Under the pieces are notes generated by a model. It had not been told where the DNA came from and did not search any database. It worked only from the letters and a program-made list of their open reading frames with translations. From Gloeobacterales cyanobacterium (GTDB lineage Bacteria > Cyanobacteriota > Cyanobacteriia > Gloeobacterales > PMM-0068): a stretch of DNA of 64,000 nt. Below, one piece after another: positions 1 to 34,949 of the stretch. The first letter of the stretch is position 1. Each line of letters opens with the position of its first letter. A program made the translations under genes and the position numbers. Location: the NCBI GenBank assembly GCA_038245785.1, contig JBBRSB010000016.1, forward strand, positions 1 through 64,000, in the 5' to 3' direction.

Positions 1-337
1 GCCGGTAGCAGGCACGATGATGGTTGAGCCCACGGAAAGCGAATCTAAAGAAGAATTGGACCGCTTCTGTGACGCGATGATTGCCATCCGCGAAGAAATT
101 CGAGCGATTGAAGAGGGTCGTTCAGACCGCAAAGATAATGCTCTCAAAAATGCTCCCCATACGGCTCAAATTCTCTTATCCGACGCATGGAACCACTCCT
201 ATTCCCGCGAACAGGCCGCCTACCCAGCACCCTGGACTCGTGAGCACAAGTTCTGGCCTGCAGTCAGTCGCATTGACAATGCCTACGGGGACCGACATTT
301 CGTCTGTTCCTGCCTACCGATGGAAGCCTATAGCTAG
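1..337 (+). CDS. gcvP: Glycine dehydrogenase (glycine cleavage P protein), 3' end, partial
   Basis: [26 protein letters not shown]...NAPHT...[16 protein letters not shown] is the GcvP C-terminus; frame is open from the window edge. Confidence 0.95.
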
Positions 338-367
338 AACCTCACCCCTTAATCCCCTCTCCTGCAG

Positions 368-512
368 GCTACTGTGTACACACAAGCCGAAACCACCTCA
401 AATCTCCATCTGAACCGCCCCCTAAATTCCCCAACTTTGGGGGACTTTGAGTTAAGAACCCCCCAGAATTGGGGGGCAGGGGAGCGACTCCAAGATCTGT
501 GTACACCGTAGC
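368..512. mobile_element. MITE-like element with 15-bp TIRs and 8-bp TSD
   Basis: gctactgtgtacaca (368-382) and tgtgtacaccgtagc (498-512) are inverted repeats with 1 mismatch; direct repeat tcctgcag at 360-367 and 513-520; internal hairpins such as cccccagaattgggggg. Confidence 0.85.
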
Positions 513-576
513 TCCTGCAGGAGAGGGGAAGAACTCCTCTGGGCGGCAGGGGGGCGCAAAAAGTCTAATGTCCCTA

Positions 577-2643
577 TCAAAAAGTTGTCTCAAGTCCCAT
601 ACGATAAACAATTCCCGGTGGTGTGTAGATGCGATTGACTCTCTCAAAGCTCGCTCCACCCAAATTTTCCAGATAAACATTCACCGCAGTACTACGGCTG
701 ATGGGAACTCTGGCCGTTAGATCTAGGGTTGTAAATGGAGCAGAGAAATCTGTTGTTTTCTCGCCAGGAAGGGTAAAGAAGGCCCTGCGAGAACCGCTAC
801 TAGAGTTAGCAAGTAGATTGACCTGCCAGCCTTCGTGTTGATAACTAATGCCTACTTGAGCCACGGAATAGGGAATTAGACTGTCTTGTAATCCTGTCAC
901 AATCTCACGGGCATCAGTGTAGGTGTAGTTCAAAAAGCTAGAAAACTCAGGGGACATTTGCCACTTGAGCGCTGTTTCAAAGCCTCCAACTTCTACAGGT
1001 CCGATGTTCTGCCATTTTCCATTGACCGCTTGCAAGCGATTGGACAGACTACTGCCGAAGTAGGTAAATTGCCCCGTGAAGTCAGGAGAAAACTGGACAT
1101 CGACTCCTGCATTCCAAGATGAACCTGTCTCAGGCCTTAGGTCGGGATTTGGGTCCCAACCGTGCACCGTGTCGAAAACATACAGTTGATCCAAGCCAGG
1201 ATTGCGCTGTGCCCCAGCCCAACTCGCACGCACAGCAACCCCCGTACTGGCATCCCATTTCAGGCCAGCACTTGGGTTAAAGTAATTCCCAAACTGACCA
1301 TCAAAACTGCCTCGCCCGCCTAGTTCCAGCGTGAGGTCTCTACTAATATTCCAGGTATCTAATAGGAAAAGTCCTGTATTAAGCAATGATCTATCTTCTG
1401 TAGCCCGACTGCGACCAGCTTGGGTGCTAACAACATTGCCAATGAGCTGGTTATTTTGCAGGTCTACCCCGTAGCGCAAGGTATTGGTCTTAGAGGTGAG
1501 TAGCTGATGTTCTATGCGTGCGGTAAGTTGCTTGGTATCGAGCGTACCCGTACGAGAAACTAACAGATTACCCGTGGGGCCATAGGTATTGAAATAGTCC
1601 TGATTATAACCCAACGTAGTGGTTAGCGTAGAATCACCATTCTCTGTCAGTAGAGATTTCCAATAAATACCAAGATTCCATCCATCATGATCTAAGCGGT
1701 CTCTATTGAGCGTTGTCAGAAATGGGTTAAAAGAATAGAGAAGACCCTTGCGGCTAACTATTTTAGTTGTATCAAAACTTAAAGTATTGCGCTGGTCTAA
1801 TTCGAGAGATACATTCGCTGAATAGCTGGTAAGGGAAGTATCAGAATTAAAGAATCGGCCGTTAGGATCTCGATTAGTGGACCCGAATGGGACTGGATAA
1901 TTATTCTCTGCCTTCGAATCTTGGAAACTAAATAAATAGCTCGTTTTATCATCAGAGCCACCATAACTGGTTCGATAGTCAGATTGCCCTAGAGAACCGA
2001 ATTCTACTTTGGCATTCAGCTGAGCAGGTCCGACTCCTTCTTTGGGGATAATGTTAACGACTCCACTAAAACCTCCTTCAGAACCATATAGGGTGGAACT
2101 AGCTCCACTGGAGAGTTCTACTCTTTCAACAGCCTCTACGGGCAGCGCATTTAAGTCTGTACCACCATGGTAGGTACTGATTCTGTTGCCAATTGGCCTG
2201 CCATTTAGCAAAATCACTGAATCGTTGAGAGAGCGTCCTCGGTAATAGCTCCCCGTGTGAATATCTGCCCCTCTCCCCACATCATTGATGGCAAATCCAG
2301 GTGCTCCTTTTAGGGTCTGACCTATATTCTGCGCTCCCTTCTTTTTAATTTCCCCCTTAGGAATGCTGTAGGAAGGAGAGGTTTGCGAAGGCCCTGTCTG
2401 CTTGCTTTTTACTCTTGGCTGGAATAGAGGAGTCTCTCCGTCTGAAGAAGTTTTTGGGACATTCTCTGACTCAGGTGCTGAGGTTGCAACCTCTTGCGCT
2501 TTTGAAGGAGTTCCCTCTTGTAACCCTTGCGCTGACTGGGTAGGAGTTGGTAATTCAGAAAGTTTTTGGATGGTTTGAGCAACTGTAGCAGTAGCACTAA
2601 AGATAGAAACAGAAATAGCTAGGACCCATGAGTAAGGTTTCAT
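577..2643 (-). CDS. TonB-dependent outer membrane receptor
   Basis: Signal peptide; plug motifs ILLNGRP, VERVELSSGASSTLYGS and GVVNII; NPDLRPETG; ENL motif near the C-terminus; terminal Phe. Confidence 0.92.
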   Translation of the reverse strand: MKPYSWVLAISVSIFSATATVAQTIQKLSELPTPTQSAQGLQEGTPSKAQEVATSAPESENVPKTSSDGETPLFQPRVKSKQTGPSQTSPSYSIPKGEIKKKGAQNIGQTLKGAPGFAINDVGRGADIHTGSYYRGRSLNDSVILLNGRPIGNRISTYHGGTDLNALPVEAVERVELSSGASSTLYGSEGGFSGVVNIIPKEGVGPAQLNAKVEFGSLGQSDYRTSYGGSDDKTSYLFSFQDSKAENNYPVPFGSTNRDPNGRFFNSDTSLTSYSANVSLELDQRNTLSFDTTKIVSRKGLLYSFNPFLTTLNRDRLDHDGWNLGIYWKSLLTENGDSTLTTTLGYNQDYFNTYGPTGNLLVSRTGTLDTKQLTARIEHQLLTSKTNTLRYGVDLQNNQLIGNVVSTQAGRSRATEDRSLLNTGLFLLDTWNISRDLTLELGGRGSFDGQFGNYFNPSAGLKWDASTGVAVRASWAGAQRNPGLDQLYVFDTVHGWDPNPDLRPETGSSWNAGVDVQFSPDFTGQFTYFGSSLSNRLQAVNGKWQNIGPVEVGGFETALKWQMSPEFSSFLNYTYTDAREIVTGLQDSLIPYSVAQVGISYQHEGWQVNLLANSSSGSRRAFFTLPGEKTTDFSAPFTTLDLTARVPISRSTAVNVYLENLGGASFERVNRIYTPPGIVYRMGLETTF

Positions 2644-2694
2644 GATAGAAGTTCAATTTAAAAAGCTCTGCAATGCTCTCTGAGACATCGCCAT

Positions 2695-2717
2695 ACGTCA
2701 AATGACAGACTGTCAAA
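2695..2717. promoter_or_regulatory. Putative PetR operator (GAC-N5-GTC palindrome), copy A
   Basis: tgacagactgtca palindrome at 2703-2715, part of a 23-bp repeat also present at 2810-2832. Confidence 0.65.
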
Positions 2718-2809
2718 CCTTAAATTTCCAAAATAAAGTAGGCCGACCATACAACATATAGTCAGCCCCTATCTCGTTTCTTCTGTAAGTTTGTCTTCTT
2801 AGGTATTAG

Positions 2810-2832
2810 ATGTCAAAAGACACGGTGTCAAA
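2810..2832. promoter_or_regulatory. Putative PetR operator (GAC-N5-GTC palindrome), copy B
   Basis: gacacggtgtc palindrome at 2819-2829, in the same flanking context as copy A. Confidence 0.65.
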
Positions 2833-2888
2833 GTTCAAGTGGCTACATAATGAGCGTGTTACTCTAGTTGCGTCTGATAGAACTAACA

Positions 2889-3308
2889 ATGGCTCCTCTT
2901 CCTAATAACCGACCGAATAGGCTTTCTCTAGGTCCTTTAGAAACAGAAATCTTAGAAATTCTCTGGGAGTTCCATTCTGCGACCACGAAAGATATTTATG
3001 AGCGAATACTGGCAGATCCAGACCGAGAGCTGACGTACTCTTCGGTAACTACTGTTCTACGGCGTCTGACTCAGAAAGGCTGGCTGACCTGTGATGAGGA
3101 AGGACGGGCCTTTGAATGGAAGCCTGTGGTTTCTAGAGAAGAAGCCCAGAGTCTAGCAGCCCATAATCAGTTGCAAAAGTTTCTCTCGGTGAGTACCCCT
3201 GAGATCATTGCTGCCTTTGCCGATAGTTTGGACCAAAACAGCTTAGAACAGCTGCAGGCGATCATGAGCCGCATTCAGGAAGTGCGTCTACAGCGGAGGA
3301 ATCCCTAA
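2889..3308 (+). CDS. petR: BlaI/CopY-family transcriptional regulator (PetR, copper switch)
   Basis: MAPLPNNRPNRLSLGPLETEILEILW...ILADPDRELTYSSVTTVLRRLTQKGWL matches the cyanobacterial PetR pattern; coupled to an M56 protease; ATG at 2889 chosen. Confidence 0.85.
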   Translation: MAPLPNNRPNRLSLGPLETEILEILWEFHSATTKDIYERILADPDRELTYSSVTTVLRRLTQKGWLTCDEEGRAFEWKPVVSREEAQSLAAHNQLQKFLSVSTPEIIAAFADSLDQNSLEQLQAIMSRIQEVRLQRRNP

Positions 3309-4189
3309 TGCATCTGCTGATGATTTGTGGTGTACTGGCCCTGTGTTGGTTTGTGCGTCAGGAAAGTTCTATAAGAAAAGGGCTTTGGTCTGTCCGCTGG
3401 CAAAGGACCCTAACTTCATTTCTGCTTCCCCCTTGTCTTTTGATCACAACAGCCCTTGCGATTCTCTGGATGGGTTCTGGGGGTGCGACCTTTAGCTTTT
3501 GGGATGGAAATCTAACCTATGGCTTGGCCTGGGGTTTCCTGTTCTTCTCTGCTATTCAGGGATCGAAACTAGCATGGTCTGGGACAAAGTTTCTCCGCAA
3601 AATCCAGACCTATTCCTTAGTCGAGGTACAGGGGACTTCTTGCCGCCGCCTCGAGACTGCGGCTCCCTTTATCGCCCAAGTCGGTTTCTGGAATCCTCAG
3701 CTACTGGTGAGTCAGGGCTTACTCGATAGTCTGGACCAAGAACACCTGGAAGCAGTCTTATCCCATGAGCAGGCTCACCACTACTACCGGGATACCTTTT
3801 GGTTCTTCTGGCTTGGATGGTTGCGCAGAGCTACGTACTGGTTGCCCAATACACAATCTTTGTGGGAAGAACTTCTAGCCTTGCGGGAACTACGCGCCGA
3901 TAGCTGGGCAGCCCAGCAGGTAGATGTTTTTGCTTTAGCTGAATCGCTGGTTTTGGTCGTAAATTCTGGCTCGACTCCGGTAGAATCCGAACTGTTCTGT
4001 GCAGGCATAGCGGCCCAATCTCCGAGCCGCTTGGAAGAACGCGTAGAAGCTTTACTGGCGGGCCCGGACTCTTCAAAAAGCTTTAGTCTTGGCTTCTTCC
4101 TTTGGTTATCCCTGATGTTGCTCCCTTTTGCCGCCCTTCCGTTTCACACGCATTGTGTGTGCCCGTTTTTGAAAAGCGGTTTATTCTAA
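3308..4189 (+). CDS. petP: M56/BlaR1-like membrane metalloprotease (PetP)
   Basis: TM segments, HEQAH zinc motif, RELRAD; start overlaps the petR stop. Confidence 0.85.
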   Translation: MHLLMICGVLALCWFVRQESSIRKGLWSVRWQRTLTSFLLPPCLLITTALAILWMGSGGATFSFWDGNLTYGLAWGFLFFSAIQGSKLAWSGTKFLRKIQTYSLVEVQGTSCRRLETAAPFIAQVGFWNPQLLVSQGLLDSLDQEHLEAVLSHEQAHHYYRDTFWFFWLGWLRRATYWLPNTQSLWEELLALRELRADSWAAQQVDVFALAESLVLVVNSGSTPVESELFCAGIAAQSPSRLEERVEALLAGPDSSKSFSLGFFLWLSLMLLPFAALPFHTHCVCPFLKSGLF

Positions 4190-4209
4190 GGCGCGAATAA
4201 GCAGAACCG

Positions 4210-5289
4210 TCAAACAGCAACCCAGATTTTTTGCTCATAGGATTGGTGCGCAGTATCAATCAGGATTTGAGAGCGTAATCCCTCTTTCAACGAAGGGGTC
4301 ATCGGGCGGCCCGTCTCTATGCTGTGAATGAATCGCTCCGCCATGCCAATGAACGCAGCAATTCTGCCATCTGGATAGGAGTGAACAAACTGGAGGTCTT
4401 GAGGAATAAATTGCTCTACCAAATCTTCTCCTGGTTTTGCTAGCCAGAGTTTGAATCCATGGATATAGTCCAATAAATTATCGCTACCTAAAACTAGGGT
4501 TCCGTACTCGCCATAGACGCGAATCCAATGGCCCTGTCCCCGCCAAGTCGCCGTACTCAGAGAGACAACAGCGGGCGTTCCCTGCTCGAATTCAAGGAGC
4601 AAGTTACAGGTATCATCACTGTCTACCGATTTTAAATTATCTGATGGGCTCATTGGATCGGGACGTTCTTTGATAGCCGTTGAGAGTTGAGCGCTAAGTT
4701 GGGCAATGGGGCCAAAAAACCACTCCAAATAGTCAAAACAATGGGAACCAATCGCTCCTAAGGCCCCTCCTCCTTTTTCTTTTTCTGAATACCAGTTCCA
4801 GGCTCGCTTCGCATCTGCTCTGCCTTCCACTTGCCATGCCACTTCTATAAAGCGAATGCTGCCAATAATATCTCGCTCTAAAAGTCGCTTTAGATATTGC
4901 CAATGGGGAACGGCCCGAAATTCAAAATCGACGCCATGGATGAGCTGGTTAGCTTCAGCCAGATCTAGCATTTCTGTTGCTTCAGCAGCATTCAAAGCAA
5001 CTGGTTTTTCACAGAATAATGCTTTCTTTGCTTTGAGTACCGCCATGGATTGTTCATGATGCAGATGGGGAGGGCTACTGATAGCAACTGCCTGAATATC
5101 TGGATGCTGAGCCATCTCTTCGACGGTAGCAAAAACCAAAGGAATATCCTGCTTTTCGGCCAGCATTTGTGTCTTCGCTAGATTTCTTCCCCAAATGCCA
5201 ACGATTTTCACATTAGGAATGGCTTGAAAGCCTGGAATATAGACCTTTTCCCCAAATCCTGTTCCAACGATGCCTATCTGAATGGCCAT
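4210..5289 (-). CDS. Gfo/Idh/MocA family oxidoreductase
   Basis: IGIVGTGFG, CEKP, GGGALGAIGSH motifs. Confidence 0.9.
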   Translation of the reverse strand: MAIQIGIVGTGFGEKVYIPGFQAIPNVKIVGIWGRNLAKTQMLAEKQDIPLVFATVEEMAQHPDIQAVAISSPPHLHHEQSMAVLKAKKALFCEKPVALNAAEATEMLDLAEANQLIHGVDFEFRAVPHWQYLKRLLERDIIGSIRFIEVAWQVEGRADAKRAWNWYSEKEKGGGALGAIGSHCFDYLEWFFGPIAQLSAQLSTAIKERPDPMSPSDNLKSVDSDDTCNLLLEFEQGTPAVVSLSTATWRGQGHWIRVYGEYGTLVLGSDNLLDYIHGFKLWLAKPGEDLVEQFIPQDLQFVHSYPDGRIAAFIGMAERFIHSIETGRPMTPSLKEGLRSQILIDTAHQSYEQKIWVAV

Positions 5290-33830: not shown

Positions 33831-34256
33831 TTAAGGAGTAGCCCGCACAGGCCAATTAATTTGAAAAGGAGCAAAGGTTACCTTGCTGCCCTTCTTCGGC
33901 TGACCTACTAGGCGTACGGTGTAGGGACCGGGACTGGGAAACATCAGCTTTGCCATCACCCGTTCGTTCCCAGACAGCGTATATTCACCAATCGCTTTCG
34001 CTTTTGAATTAGGCTTACCAGAATACACTTTGACCGAACAAGAACAGTCTTGAGCTGTAATGCTATTTCCTCCTTTTTTGCGGATCTCGAACCACCCCTC
34101 CACGGGCACCCCAGCCTTTGGCTGGTCATCAGGCTCAATGTGGAATAAGGCTCCTACATTTTTGTCTTTCTCTAAGTCATGGGCAAAGGCAGGTGTAATG
34201 GTTAATGCAAGTAAACTAAAGAGAGTGAGAGCATACTTCATAGATTTAAAGTTCAT
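33831..34256 (-). CDS. Exported protein with His at the mature N-terminus and a CxC motif (putative metal-binding)
   Basis: Signal peptide ...TPAFA|HDLEK, FHIEPDD, DCSC; start at 34256 or 34241. Confidence 0.8.
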   Translation of the reverse strand: MNFKSMKYALTLFSLLALTITPAFAHDLEKDKNVGALFHIEPDDQPKAGVPVEGWFEIRKKGGNSITAQDCSCSVKVYSGKPNSKAKAIGEYTLSGNERVMAKLMFPSPGPYTVRLVGQPKKGSKVTFAPFQINWPVRATP

Positions 34257-34902
34257 CCTTTTTGTAGTTAGAAGAGCGACTAAAAGACTTAATGGACAAA
34301 TATTTCGCCAGAAGAATGAATACAGATAAAGTAAACAAAAGCAAAGCATTGGTGAATTTGAACGTATCCCATCCTGACCCCAAATAGTGGACGCCGAGCC
34401 AAATACTATGGATTAGGCCCAGAATAGCAGCGGGATAGACCAAGAGATGGAGTTGCTTCCAATATTTCCCCAACCTGCGAATAGAAAACTGGTTACTGGT
34501 TAAAACAAGCGGCACCATTAATCCTAAAGCGACCACTCCCAGCCAAGCACCCACTTGAAAGACTGGCAAAAGAAAACTGATGCCATCCCAGCGGCCTCCC
34601 AAAATATGCTCAACCGAAGTGAGGGTATGCATCAATGCAAAGGCAAAAGTAGTCAGACCTAACCAACGCCGGTCTTGTGTGATGCCAGGTAATATCGGTT
34701 CTAGCGGTCTACTTAATATCAACAAACCGAAGCAGAATAAAGCCCCATGCCCCTGAAGTTCTGAGATTAACTGGCCAGCTTGATGATTTCCCGTTGTCCA
34801 ATAATCCCAAACCACTAAGCCAACCCAGGCTAAGCCAATCCCGATAGCCAAAAAGGGCCAGCGTAGGGGCCGGAGGTCGACCGTCGGGATAGGAGCAGTC
34901 AC
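34246..34902 (-). CDS. Ferric-reductase-like transmembrane (MsrQ-like) heme b protein
   Basis: RRWLGL..F.FALMH, LTSNQFSIRRLGKYWKQLHLLVYPAAILGLIH. Confidence 0.88.
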   Translation of the reverse strand: MTAPIPTVDLRPLRWPFLAIGIGLAWVGLVVWDYWTTGNHQAGQLISELQGHGALFCFGLLILSRPLEPILPGITQDRRWLGLTTFAFALMHTLTSVEHILGGRWDGISFLLPVFQVGAWLGVVALGLMVPLVLTSNQFSIRRLGKYWKQLHLLVYPAAILGLIHSIWLGVHYLGSGWDTFKFTNALLLFTLSVFILLAKYLSIKSFSRSSNYKKDEL

Positions 34903-34938
34903 ACTGAGTCTTGCGGTAACATGTGTACGATCATATAA

Positions 34939-34949
34939 GACACATGGTC
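34939..34949. promoter_or_regulatory. GAC-N5-GTC box upstream of the 34902 operon (possible PetR site)
   Basis: gacacatggtc, directly upstream of a TATGAT -10-like hexamer on the minus strand. Confidence 0.4.

Follow-up and report, generated by a model that had tools for sequence, protein, structure and literature searches.

Our analysis of a 64,000-nucleotide stretch of Gloeobacterales DNA (the window) suggests that PetR activates an outer-membrane receptor of the Anabaena All3310 type when copper is scarce, and that this receptor imports Cu or a small Cu complex; we give this reading a probability of roughly 0.6. Control of the receptor by PetR is very likely on the sequence evidence, and copper is its probable cargo. 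The receptor promoter carries the same motif as cytochrome c6 genes, thus the switch likely turns the transporter on. How Cu passes the cyanobacterial outer membrane at scarcity is poorly known, and the accessible part of a 2025 review names porins alone for this entry; a widespread candidate can now be named, together with its regulator.

At window positions 577-4189, petR-petP lies head-to-head with a gene for a TonB-dependent receptor. The initial annotation had described a BlaI-type regulator and an M56 protease divergent from such a receptor, and Pfam confirms these genes. The features are:

577..2643, minus strand: TonB-dependent receptor, 688 aa (Pfam Plug and beta-barrel)
2697..2717, minus strand: predicted proximal PetR activator-type box TTTGAC-N9-TTTGAC (exact motif match)
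2730..2782, minus strand: candidate PetR-activated small RNA, ~55 nt (ends estimated; terminator and fold prediction)
2812..2832, minus strand: predicted distal PetR activator-type box (exact motif match)
2889..3308, plus strand: petR, BlaI/CopY-family regulator (Penicillinase_R, E 4e-30)
3308..4189, plus strand: petP, M48/M56 membrane protease (HEQAH at 153-157)

The gene petR is single copy in the genome, and the petP start overlaps the petR stop. PetR has the LQKFL segment, which likely holds the cleavage Phe (F98). PetP has the first of the two conserved loop Met residues (M53 and M58, the second proposed as a Cu ligand) as M55, and the second is absent here and in most PetP of the same order. 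Synteny of petRP with petJ is present in relatives: in the sister genomes G001 and G002, petJ lies divergent to a petR of 93% identity, and petR/petP homologs lie <1 kb from a petJ match in G037, G082, G088, G128 and G236. In Synechocystis, Cu activates PetP, which destroys PetR, and by orthology the same would happen here. The neighbours of petRP include a DUF1775 (YcnI-like, Cu-binding) gene.

In the gap between the divergent genes, the minus strand reads TTTGACA-N3-TGTC-W-TTTGAC twice without mismatch, at 2832-2812 and again at 2717-2697. These two copies are 115 bp apart, as first reported, and are the only exact copies in the whole 5.0-Mb genome. The bare GAC-N5-GTC core is common, with 966 matches in the genome and 15 in the window (10.2 +/- 2.8 expected). 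The initial annotation had correctly named this core as the PetR site, and both boxes also match, with 0 mismatches, the longer petJ-type activator motif of PetR around it, TTTGAC-N9-TTTGAC (Garcia-Canas et al., bioRxiv 2020.07.31.226407). When scored by a matrix whose training set was limited to 36 petJ promoter sites, all taken from other genomes, the two boxes are the top-scoring sites in the genome at 31.8 and 30.6 bits, and the next site reaches 18.0 bits. The second half of the proximal box forms the -35 of the predicted receptor promoter, followed by a 17-bp spacer and a weak -10, GAGCAT, at 2678-2673. The -10 at receptor sites has A at -11 in 43/53 and T at -7 in 29/53, with no conserved -12 T. 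At Synechocystis petJ, PetR binds in the absence of Cu to a box standing in place of the -35 and turns on a promoter whose -10 is weak; the receptor promoter would be activated in the same manner. The distal box is followed by its own -10 (CAAACT, 2793-2788) and shares positions with the likely -35 of the petRP promoter on the opposite strand (its -10, CATAAT at 2846-2851, plus strand, was read by eye). Between the two boxes lies a minus-strand terminator hairpin (2768-2740) that was absent from the initial annotation. Because the distal box reads into this terminator, only the proximal box is expected to drive the receptor directly, a correction to the initial annotation, in which both -35-like elements point at the receptor.

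The arrangement recurs far beyond this locus. In an even class sample of 251 genomes, 39 bear the receptor, and the box (<=3 mismatches, coding strand) stands upstream of it in 34 of them (32 with <=2 mismatches). It was found on the opposite strand in 0/39 and at unrelated paralog loci in 0/14, and the genome background is ~0.007 per 400 bp. Four of the five orthologs that do not have the activator-form box carry palindromic GACA-N3-TGTC boxes instead, and one of the five is split from petR by inserted ORFs. The receptor occurs in 39/174 PetR-positive and 0/77 PetR-negative genomes, counts in which kin are not independent. Head-to-head petRP and receptor is the minority layout, and most boxed receptors lie far from petRP; motif conservation across cyanobacteria, proposed earlier as a check, holds whether or not petRP is near. 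Whole-genome pattern searches for the box return petJ, the All3310-type receptor, a second receptor clade and exbB, as well as SodC-like, DsbD_2/ferric-reductase and His-N-terminal periplasmic genes. Alternatively, the boxes could solely autoregulate petRP or be leftovers of a deleted petJ promoter, given that the distal box shares positions with the likely petRP -35 and derives in part from a petJ box. However, orthologs that lie far from petRP have this box upstream too, with orientation and spacing preserved, and petRP mRNA is unchanged with Cu in Synechocystis. Boxed receptors far from petRP, together with the unboxed paralogs, argue that autoregulation alone, which the initial annotation had named as a refuting outcome, is not the explanation, and we consider this alternative most improbable.

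The receptor is, judged by its sequence, the ortholog of Anabaena All3310 ('BtuB1'). It is 53% identical over 672 aa to the protein of a locus (L158) where five published btuB1 primers align without mismatch, and it falls in an All3310-type clade of 48 rows including this primer-matched locus (SH-aLRT 95, in a quick tree with a long branch for the window receptor). The name BtuB1 implies a constitutive low-rate cobalamin transporter, for which the box would be incidental or secondary. The top NCBIfam and Foldseek matches are indeed BtuB, and the receptor is the sole PF00593 match and the sole TonB-dependent outer-membrane transporter detected in a genome that encodes MetH. (An extra TonB on contig G000:C83 was set aside, as this 4-kb contig has 54% GC and transposases.) In Anabaena, mutation of btuB2 raises btuB1 expression, and no strain lacking both btuB1 and btuB2 was obtained, which hints at overlap with B12 uptake. 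Against this, the scores stay below the BtuB cut-offs (TIGR01779, 102.8 vs 599.7; PRK10641, 96.7 vs 836 bits), and no cobalamin riboswitch was found in window 1-5000, where no known RNA family matched, or at five ortholog loci scanned; the genome's one cobalamin riboswitch sits elsewhere, before a chelatase-like gene. Anabaena btuB1 likewise has no riboswitch and no cobalt induction, and its mutant took up B12 like the wild type, with no significant defect, when measured after Co starvation. Nor is a box incidental that is conserved in perfect form throughout the class. We therefore regard cobalamin as a rather improbable cargo.

The initial annotation had called the receptor His-rich, a description that fails with 6 His in 688 aa (0.87%). 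What distinguishes these residues is their conservation: four or five (H129, H159, H319, H379, H494) are near-invariant among 59 homologs, within a conserved set of D127, H129, H159, D163, H319, D320, D491 and H494. The His/Asp motifs are shared by members of the All3310-type clade. H319 and H494 are missing from the sister paralog without a box, all four His are missing from the riboswitch-bearing B12 receptor, and the plug His pair is also present in unboxed paralogs. The receptor ends in Phe and has no Cys and 3 Met in total, and neither an OprC-type CxxxM-HxM site, a Met-rich track nor any Met/Cys motif was found in it. Among solved structures, BtuB and Cir come nearest (17-20% identity), with PfeA also among the closest and OprC ranking lower; OprC is absent from the 31 sequence matches, and fold comparison does not tell BtuB, Cir, PfeA and OprC apart. 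The structure model (mean pLDDT 65.7, plug loops <50) is too weak for metal-site geometry. The receptor may bind metal by the plug residues H129/H159, the loop residues H319/H494 and acidic neighbours, all conserved, and would pass it to the periplasm using TonB. Such sites made of His and Asp suit Zn, Ni or Co no less than Cu. If PetR activated an importer for a different divalent metal, or a receptor for a wide range of metal chelates that rebalances metals at low Cu, this would agree with such ligands, with the reduced Mn, Fe and Cu of btuB mutants, and with the sharing of the box by SodC-like genes. We judge it unlikely all the same, since a DUF1775 gene is among the petRP neighbours, and the PetR system senses Cu specifically and has a narrow validated regulon (bioRxiv 2020.07.31.226407).

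PetR might also activate the receptor for a cargo of iron or heme, supplying cytochrome c6 after the switch. The receptor adjoins petJ in G088, G111, G167, G183, L012 and L024, Cir and PfeA resemble it in structure, and IacT, another receptor with the box, has been linked to both Fe and Cu; an excerpted supplement note cites all3310 induction by iron deficiency. However, the receptor is kept facing petRP in genomes without a petJ match (petJ had no match in 6/6 genomes of this order whose petRP faces a boxed receptor), G001 and G002 keep petJ without a receptor match, and Fe-schizokinen uptake is described, in a secondhand citation, as normal in the btuB1 mutant. This cargo thus has a minor share of the probability. 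Published expression data point both ways for the copper reading. In its favour, a biofilm RNA-seq has petE (+3.2) and the Cu exporter alr7635 (+3.9) rising and petJ (-2.1), all3310 (-3.1) and iacT (-3.8) falling; against it, 17.7% of genes changed in this set, with many transporters down, and in another of the Table S6 conditions, excerpted without the condition header, all3310 drops along with both petJ and petE. Also unfavourable are reports of all3310 transcripts in nearly every condition and of its presence in proteomes from standard medium, as well as the supplement note on iron deficiency. On the favourable side, a PbtuB1-gfp fusion stayed at background level in each medium tried, none of them described as Cu-free in the accessible text. 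The earlier proposal that PetR activates an outer-membrane Cu importer is supported, activation by PetR through the class-wide motif, with copper as the probable cargo.

The genome has petE, and searches of the 98% complete assembly with profiles, proteins and nucleotide sequences found no petJ. Alignment with G001 and G002 suggests that petJ was lost here by deletion between two boxes, and that G001 and G002 retained petJ but no longer have the receptor. The distal box would then be, by its sequence, a fusion of the ancestral petJ box with the box downstream of petJ, and the genus ancestor may have had the layout petP-petR <> box-petJ-box-RNA-box-receptor. A metagenome scan for this full layout in close relatives returned distant loci only. 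With petJ deleted, the cell would depend on plastocyanin, and we propose that scavenging took the place of switching.

The distal box, at somewhat less than even odds, drives a small RNA that dampens plastocyanin synthesis through the petE start. This candidate has an unpaired 5' part, the terminator hairpin and a U-rich tail (fold z -5.3), and its seed (2780-2771) is complementary to the petE start region (G000:C51). Promoter, terminator and unpaired seed are all predicted and are kept in 3/3 genomes, with hairpin and seed retained in G001 and G002; 0/12 pairs have a two-sided change. Plain RNAduplex ranks petE 16th and 29th of 4775, less cleanly than run-length and accessibility tests. No obvious box-plus-terminator RNA appeared among the matches listed in a pattern scan of 13 other genomes, and looking for repressor-type boxes close to a -10 yielded no usable result. 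By pairing with the petE start codon, the ~55-nt RNA would limit plastocyanin output and do the work of a repressor box, which petE does not have in this genus.

More doubtfully, PetRP may be an ancient copper-economy regulon that activates class-wide His-site Cu importers misnamed BtuB1, together with IacT and ExbBD. Early-branching lineages would drop cytochrome c6 and scavenge Cu, and the PetR-made small RNA, silencing plastocyanin in this genus, would be a bacterial counterpart of plant copper microRNAs. If the main reading is true, All3310 is reassigned, and both the response of iacT to copper and the persistence of PetRP in genomes without petJ are explained. The small RNA, if real, is a copper-sparing regulator of photosynthesis in bacteria.

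The window receptor resembles OprC of Pseudomonas aeruginosa in its TonB-dependent barrel and, as proposed here, in outer-membrane Cu import. The two are 13-14% identical, and the CxxxM-HxM site of OprC contrasts with the absence of Cys and of conserved Met here. All3310 of Anabaena sp. PCC 7120 shares the His/Asp set and the box (83 bp upstream at the primer-matched locus); it was published as a constitutive cobalamin receptor, whereas our reading has it activated by Cu limitation, and in the Anabaena lineage the gene lies apart from petRP. IacT (All4026) of Anabaena is likewise a TonB receptor with a perfect petJ-type box (in G253, before a gene matching the published iacT primers), but belongs to a different receptor clade and has an AMIN domain. 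The accessible text reports transcription of iacT at limiting Cu and an effect on Cu transport; we found no IacT-PetR link in print. IsaR1 is the cyanobacterial metal-sparing small RNA for iron. Like IsaR1 and miR398, the candidate is a short RNA predicted under metal shortage that would lower a metalloprotein; unlike them, it has no Rfam match, occurs in three genomes of one genus and has a predicted expression. In plants, miR398 is such a metal-sparing RNA (PMC7896320). Slr0240/Slr0241 of Synechocystis sp. PCC 6803 provide the closest regulatory parallel, with a BlaI regulator, an overlapping M48/M56 protease with HEXXH, and the petJ-type motif at the -35. Unlike in Synechocystis, petJ is missing here and petE has no GAC-N5-GTC within 300 bp. 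The published Synechocystis regulon comprises petE, petJ and slr0601-0602 and no transporter, whereas the two top sites of this genome would serve the receptor and the candidate small RNA.

petR and petP lie divergent from a TonB-dependent receptor in the window, with two boxes in the gap between receptor and petR, as the initial annotation had read:

577-2643, minus strand: TonB-dependent receptor, 688 aa
2832-2812 and 2717-2697: distal and proximal box, within the 245-bp receptor-petR gap
2889-3308, divergent from the receptor: petR, BlaI-family regulator
3308-4189, overlapping petR: petP, M48/M56 protease

In the Synechocystis-type switch, as described in the accessible text of Garcia-Canas et al. 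(bioRxiv 2020.07.31.226407), PetP degrades PetR when copper is present, and PetR acts as repressor of petE (plastocyanin) and as activator of petJ (cytochrome c6). The same text gives the PetR core site as GAC-N5-GTC, just as the initial annotation had given it, and TTTGAC-N9-TTTGAC, centred at -35, as the longer motif of petJ promoters. Against this longer form, each window box has 0/15 mismatches; the pattern shared by the two, TTTGACA-N3-TGTC-W-TTTGAC in the initial annotation, has no further exact copy in the genome (5.0 Mb, 98% complete). When a matrix is derived from 36 petJ sites, all outside the window's genome, they score 31.8 and 30.6 bits, against 18.0 for the next site in the genome. 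A weak -10 follows 17 bp past each box, the arrangement found at other sites. We consider it highly probable (roughly 0.9) that PetR acts through the proximal box to activate the receptor; copper shortage would stabilise PetR and thereby switch the receptor on. The window PetP lacks the second loop Met, a proposed ligand, so that the details of copper sensing may not be the same.

Receptor orthologs (E <= 1e-120) were present in 39 of 251 genomes sampled evenly across the class, and ~400 bp around each start were scored against the published motif, after removal of duplicate loci and the gene fragment L046; the L028 region, whose gene has an internal stop, was placed by hand. A coding-strand box with <=3 mismatches is present in 34 of the 39 (32 with <=2), and an opposite-strand box in 0/39; the background is 170 sites of <=3 mismatches in 10 Mb (both strands of the window's genome). 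Four of the five box-less orthologs (G150, G159, G175, G199) instead bear palindromic GACA-N3-TGTC boxes, one or two each, and in the fifth (G035) we read transposase-like ORFs as inserted between petR and receptor. Paralog loci mostly lack the box (14/17, best 5 mismatches; only 98 bp scannable in one), and the three boxed paralogs belong to a second receptor clade likewise facing petRP. PetR occurs in 39/39 receptor genomes and in 174/251 overall, counts in which kin are not independent. Among the 39, direct head-to-head layout is found only in G000 (the window's genome) and G011, with near-variants in G035 (the insertion) and G088 (petJ between). Therefore, the general feature is the box, not adjacency.

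Within one Nostocaceae receptor subclade (L165-L172, L013, L014, L017, L146), the activator box has given way to palindromic GACA-N3-TGTC boxes (one or two per locus, ~42 bp apart), and regulation may be reversed or retuned. The second receptor clade (L040, L041, L042, L201; ~28% identical) carries a plug His pair, a Cys pair and a PetR box, with petRP opposite in family f2; the same slot is served by two receptor clades.

Pattern searches over 15 whole genomes, which also returned chance intragenic matches, placed the box before petJ, the All3310-type receptor and the second receptor clade. In addition, it precedes exbB in G088, SodC-like genes in G004, G008 and G010, a DsbD_2/ferric-reductase gene in G253, and a small exported protein with a His N-terminus in G005 and G011. 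The exported SodC-like proteins of genus g3 (L206, L209, L236; divergent from petJ in G004) have an activator-type box, odd for a Cu enzyme, and are perhaps Cu-binding or Cu-free variants. In the window, the minus-strand stretch 33831-34949 contains a two-gene unit, made up of a ferric-reductase-like membrane protein (34246-34902) and a small exported one whose N-terminus carries His (33831-34241; no Pfam family, a weak YtkA-like lead from Atlas). Its GAC-N5-GTC core (34949-34939) lies a short way upstream of a TATGAT -10, where a petE-type repressor site would sit; in other genomes, both genes have homologs that carry activator-type boxes or adjoin petP. At L092:5058-6013 (G002), a DUF1775 (YcnI-like) gene and a His-N-terminal exported gene are convergent to petP.

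G253 also has a perfect box ahead of a gene matching two published iacT primers; a second perfect box (L224) lies 524 bp upstream, ahead of a short TPR-like remnant. The available parts of earlier work report iacT transcription under Cu limitation, not Fe limitation (PMC2771747), and an effect of IacT on Cu transport (PMC4284471). In Anabaena biofilms, petE and a Cu exporter rise 3.2- and 3.9-fold, and petJ, all3310 and iacT fall 2.1-, 3.1- and 3.8-fold (PMC13156569, consulted portions). Loss of PetR would be expected to produce this pattern, but 17.7% of genes change in that data set, and petE, petJ and all3310 are all down in a second condition of the same supplement. The supplement also notes all3310 induction by iron deficiency, as would suit the rival reading of a receptor supplying iron or heme.

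Five published btuB1 (all3310) primers match the L158 gene of G253 exactly; this gene shares 53% identity with the window receptor, and a box lies 83 bp upstream of it. The initial annotation called the window receptor His-rich; it is not, with 6 His, 3 Met and 0 Cys in 688 aa. Across the 48-row ortholog clade, D127, H129, H159, D163, H319, D320, D491 and H494 are invariant; H319 and H494 are missing from an unboxed sister pair, and L051, the sole receptor with a cobalamin riboswitch, has none of H129, H159, H319 and H494. A basal place in the tree puts the host of the window probably in the Gloeobacterales. The window receptor scores far under BtuB cut-offs, and the OprC CxxxM-HxM site (PMC11836926, accessible part) is not present in it. 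Fold search ranks BtuB and Cir on top and OprC below, at under 21% identity throughout, and the plug His of the predicted model lie within loops of pLDDT under 50; therefore, structure does not name the cargo. B12 uptake is an alternative that Graf et al. 2024 (PMC10878165, text available in part) retain as a hypothesis for BtuB1, citing btuB2 cross-regulation and the lack of a double mutant; they found neither a riboswitch nor cobalt induction, no GFP signal from the promoter, and B12 uptake at wild-type level in their mutant. The receptor might also import another metal, to be weighed against its copper-switch box. With end-point RT-PCR, Mirus et al. 2009 (PMC2771747, in the portion available) detected the all3310 transcript under almost every condition, which counts against tight Cu control. 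On balance, we favour Cu or a small Cu complex as cargo. No other TonB receptor was found in the window's genome, whose 4-kb contig C83 (54% GC), with transposases and a TonB C-terminal domain, is possibly foreign.

Profile, same-genus protein and nucleotide searches did not find petJ in the window's genome, where the best matches were cytM-like and psbV-like (~31%). In the same-genus sisters G001 and G002, it is petJ that faces petR, and downstream of petJ the two boxes of the window are retained together with the intervening DNA; no receptor follows those boxes or was found elsewhere in these assemblies (94% and 97% complete). The left part of the window spacer aligns with the sisters' petR-petJ spacer and the right part with their post-petJ region, switching inside the distal box. 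Judged from these alignments, deletion of petJ between two boxes would explain the spacer. A misassembly might have created the same junction, but is unlikely. All six same-order genomes with petRP facing a boxed receptor fall among the 8/14 without a petJ match (6/14 have one). Because several of these genomes are incomplete and PetJ is reported in some genomes of the order (PMC8386580, accessible part), such absences mean only not found with the query used. On this reading, the receptor would import Cu or a small Cu complex in a cell without cytochrome c6 as fallback.

From the distal box, a predicted transcript would run, 20 nt past its start, into a hairpin (z -5.3) followed by a U-rich tail. 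The 12 consensus pairs are all kept in 3/3 genomes; three changes are one-sided and none is two-sided. The hairpin could be only the old petJ terminator. An unpaired 9-nt seed is invariant in the three genomes, and in G002 the distal box is intact and the receptor-side box decayed. The seed is complementary to the first petE codons (contig C51), a region identical in G001. This match was spotted by eye and ranked afterwards, using the whole 20-nt unpaired part against 4775 start regions: 14 do as well in run length as petE with G-U and 19 without, petE is fourth by accessibility-corrected energy, and for the G001 RNA version petE alone gives the best perfect match (11 bp; 1/4775). GAC-N5-GTC is absent upstream of petE in G000 and G001, so that the RNA could replace direct repression. 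Since the match preceded its ranking and three related genomes offer little evidence, a small RNA from the distal box acting at the petE start is a tentative candidate, at slightly less than even odds. Another plastocyanin-like protein (G000:C32:35355-35828), which has a lipoprotein signal and is found throughout the order, may serve as an electron carrier anchored in the membrane; its gene is not a target of the predicted RNA.

Searches of the open literature gave no connection between PetR and a TonB receptor, all3310, iacT or a small RNA, although subscription papers, theses, and the final PNAS text and supplements could contain one; such a connection is likewise absent from the available parts of PMC13421787, PMC12292863, PMC9252766, PMC6974561 and PMC7896320. 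The components are already known, and it is the wiring between them that appears to be new.
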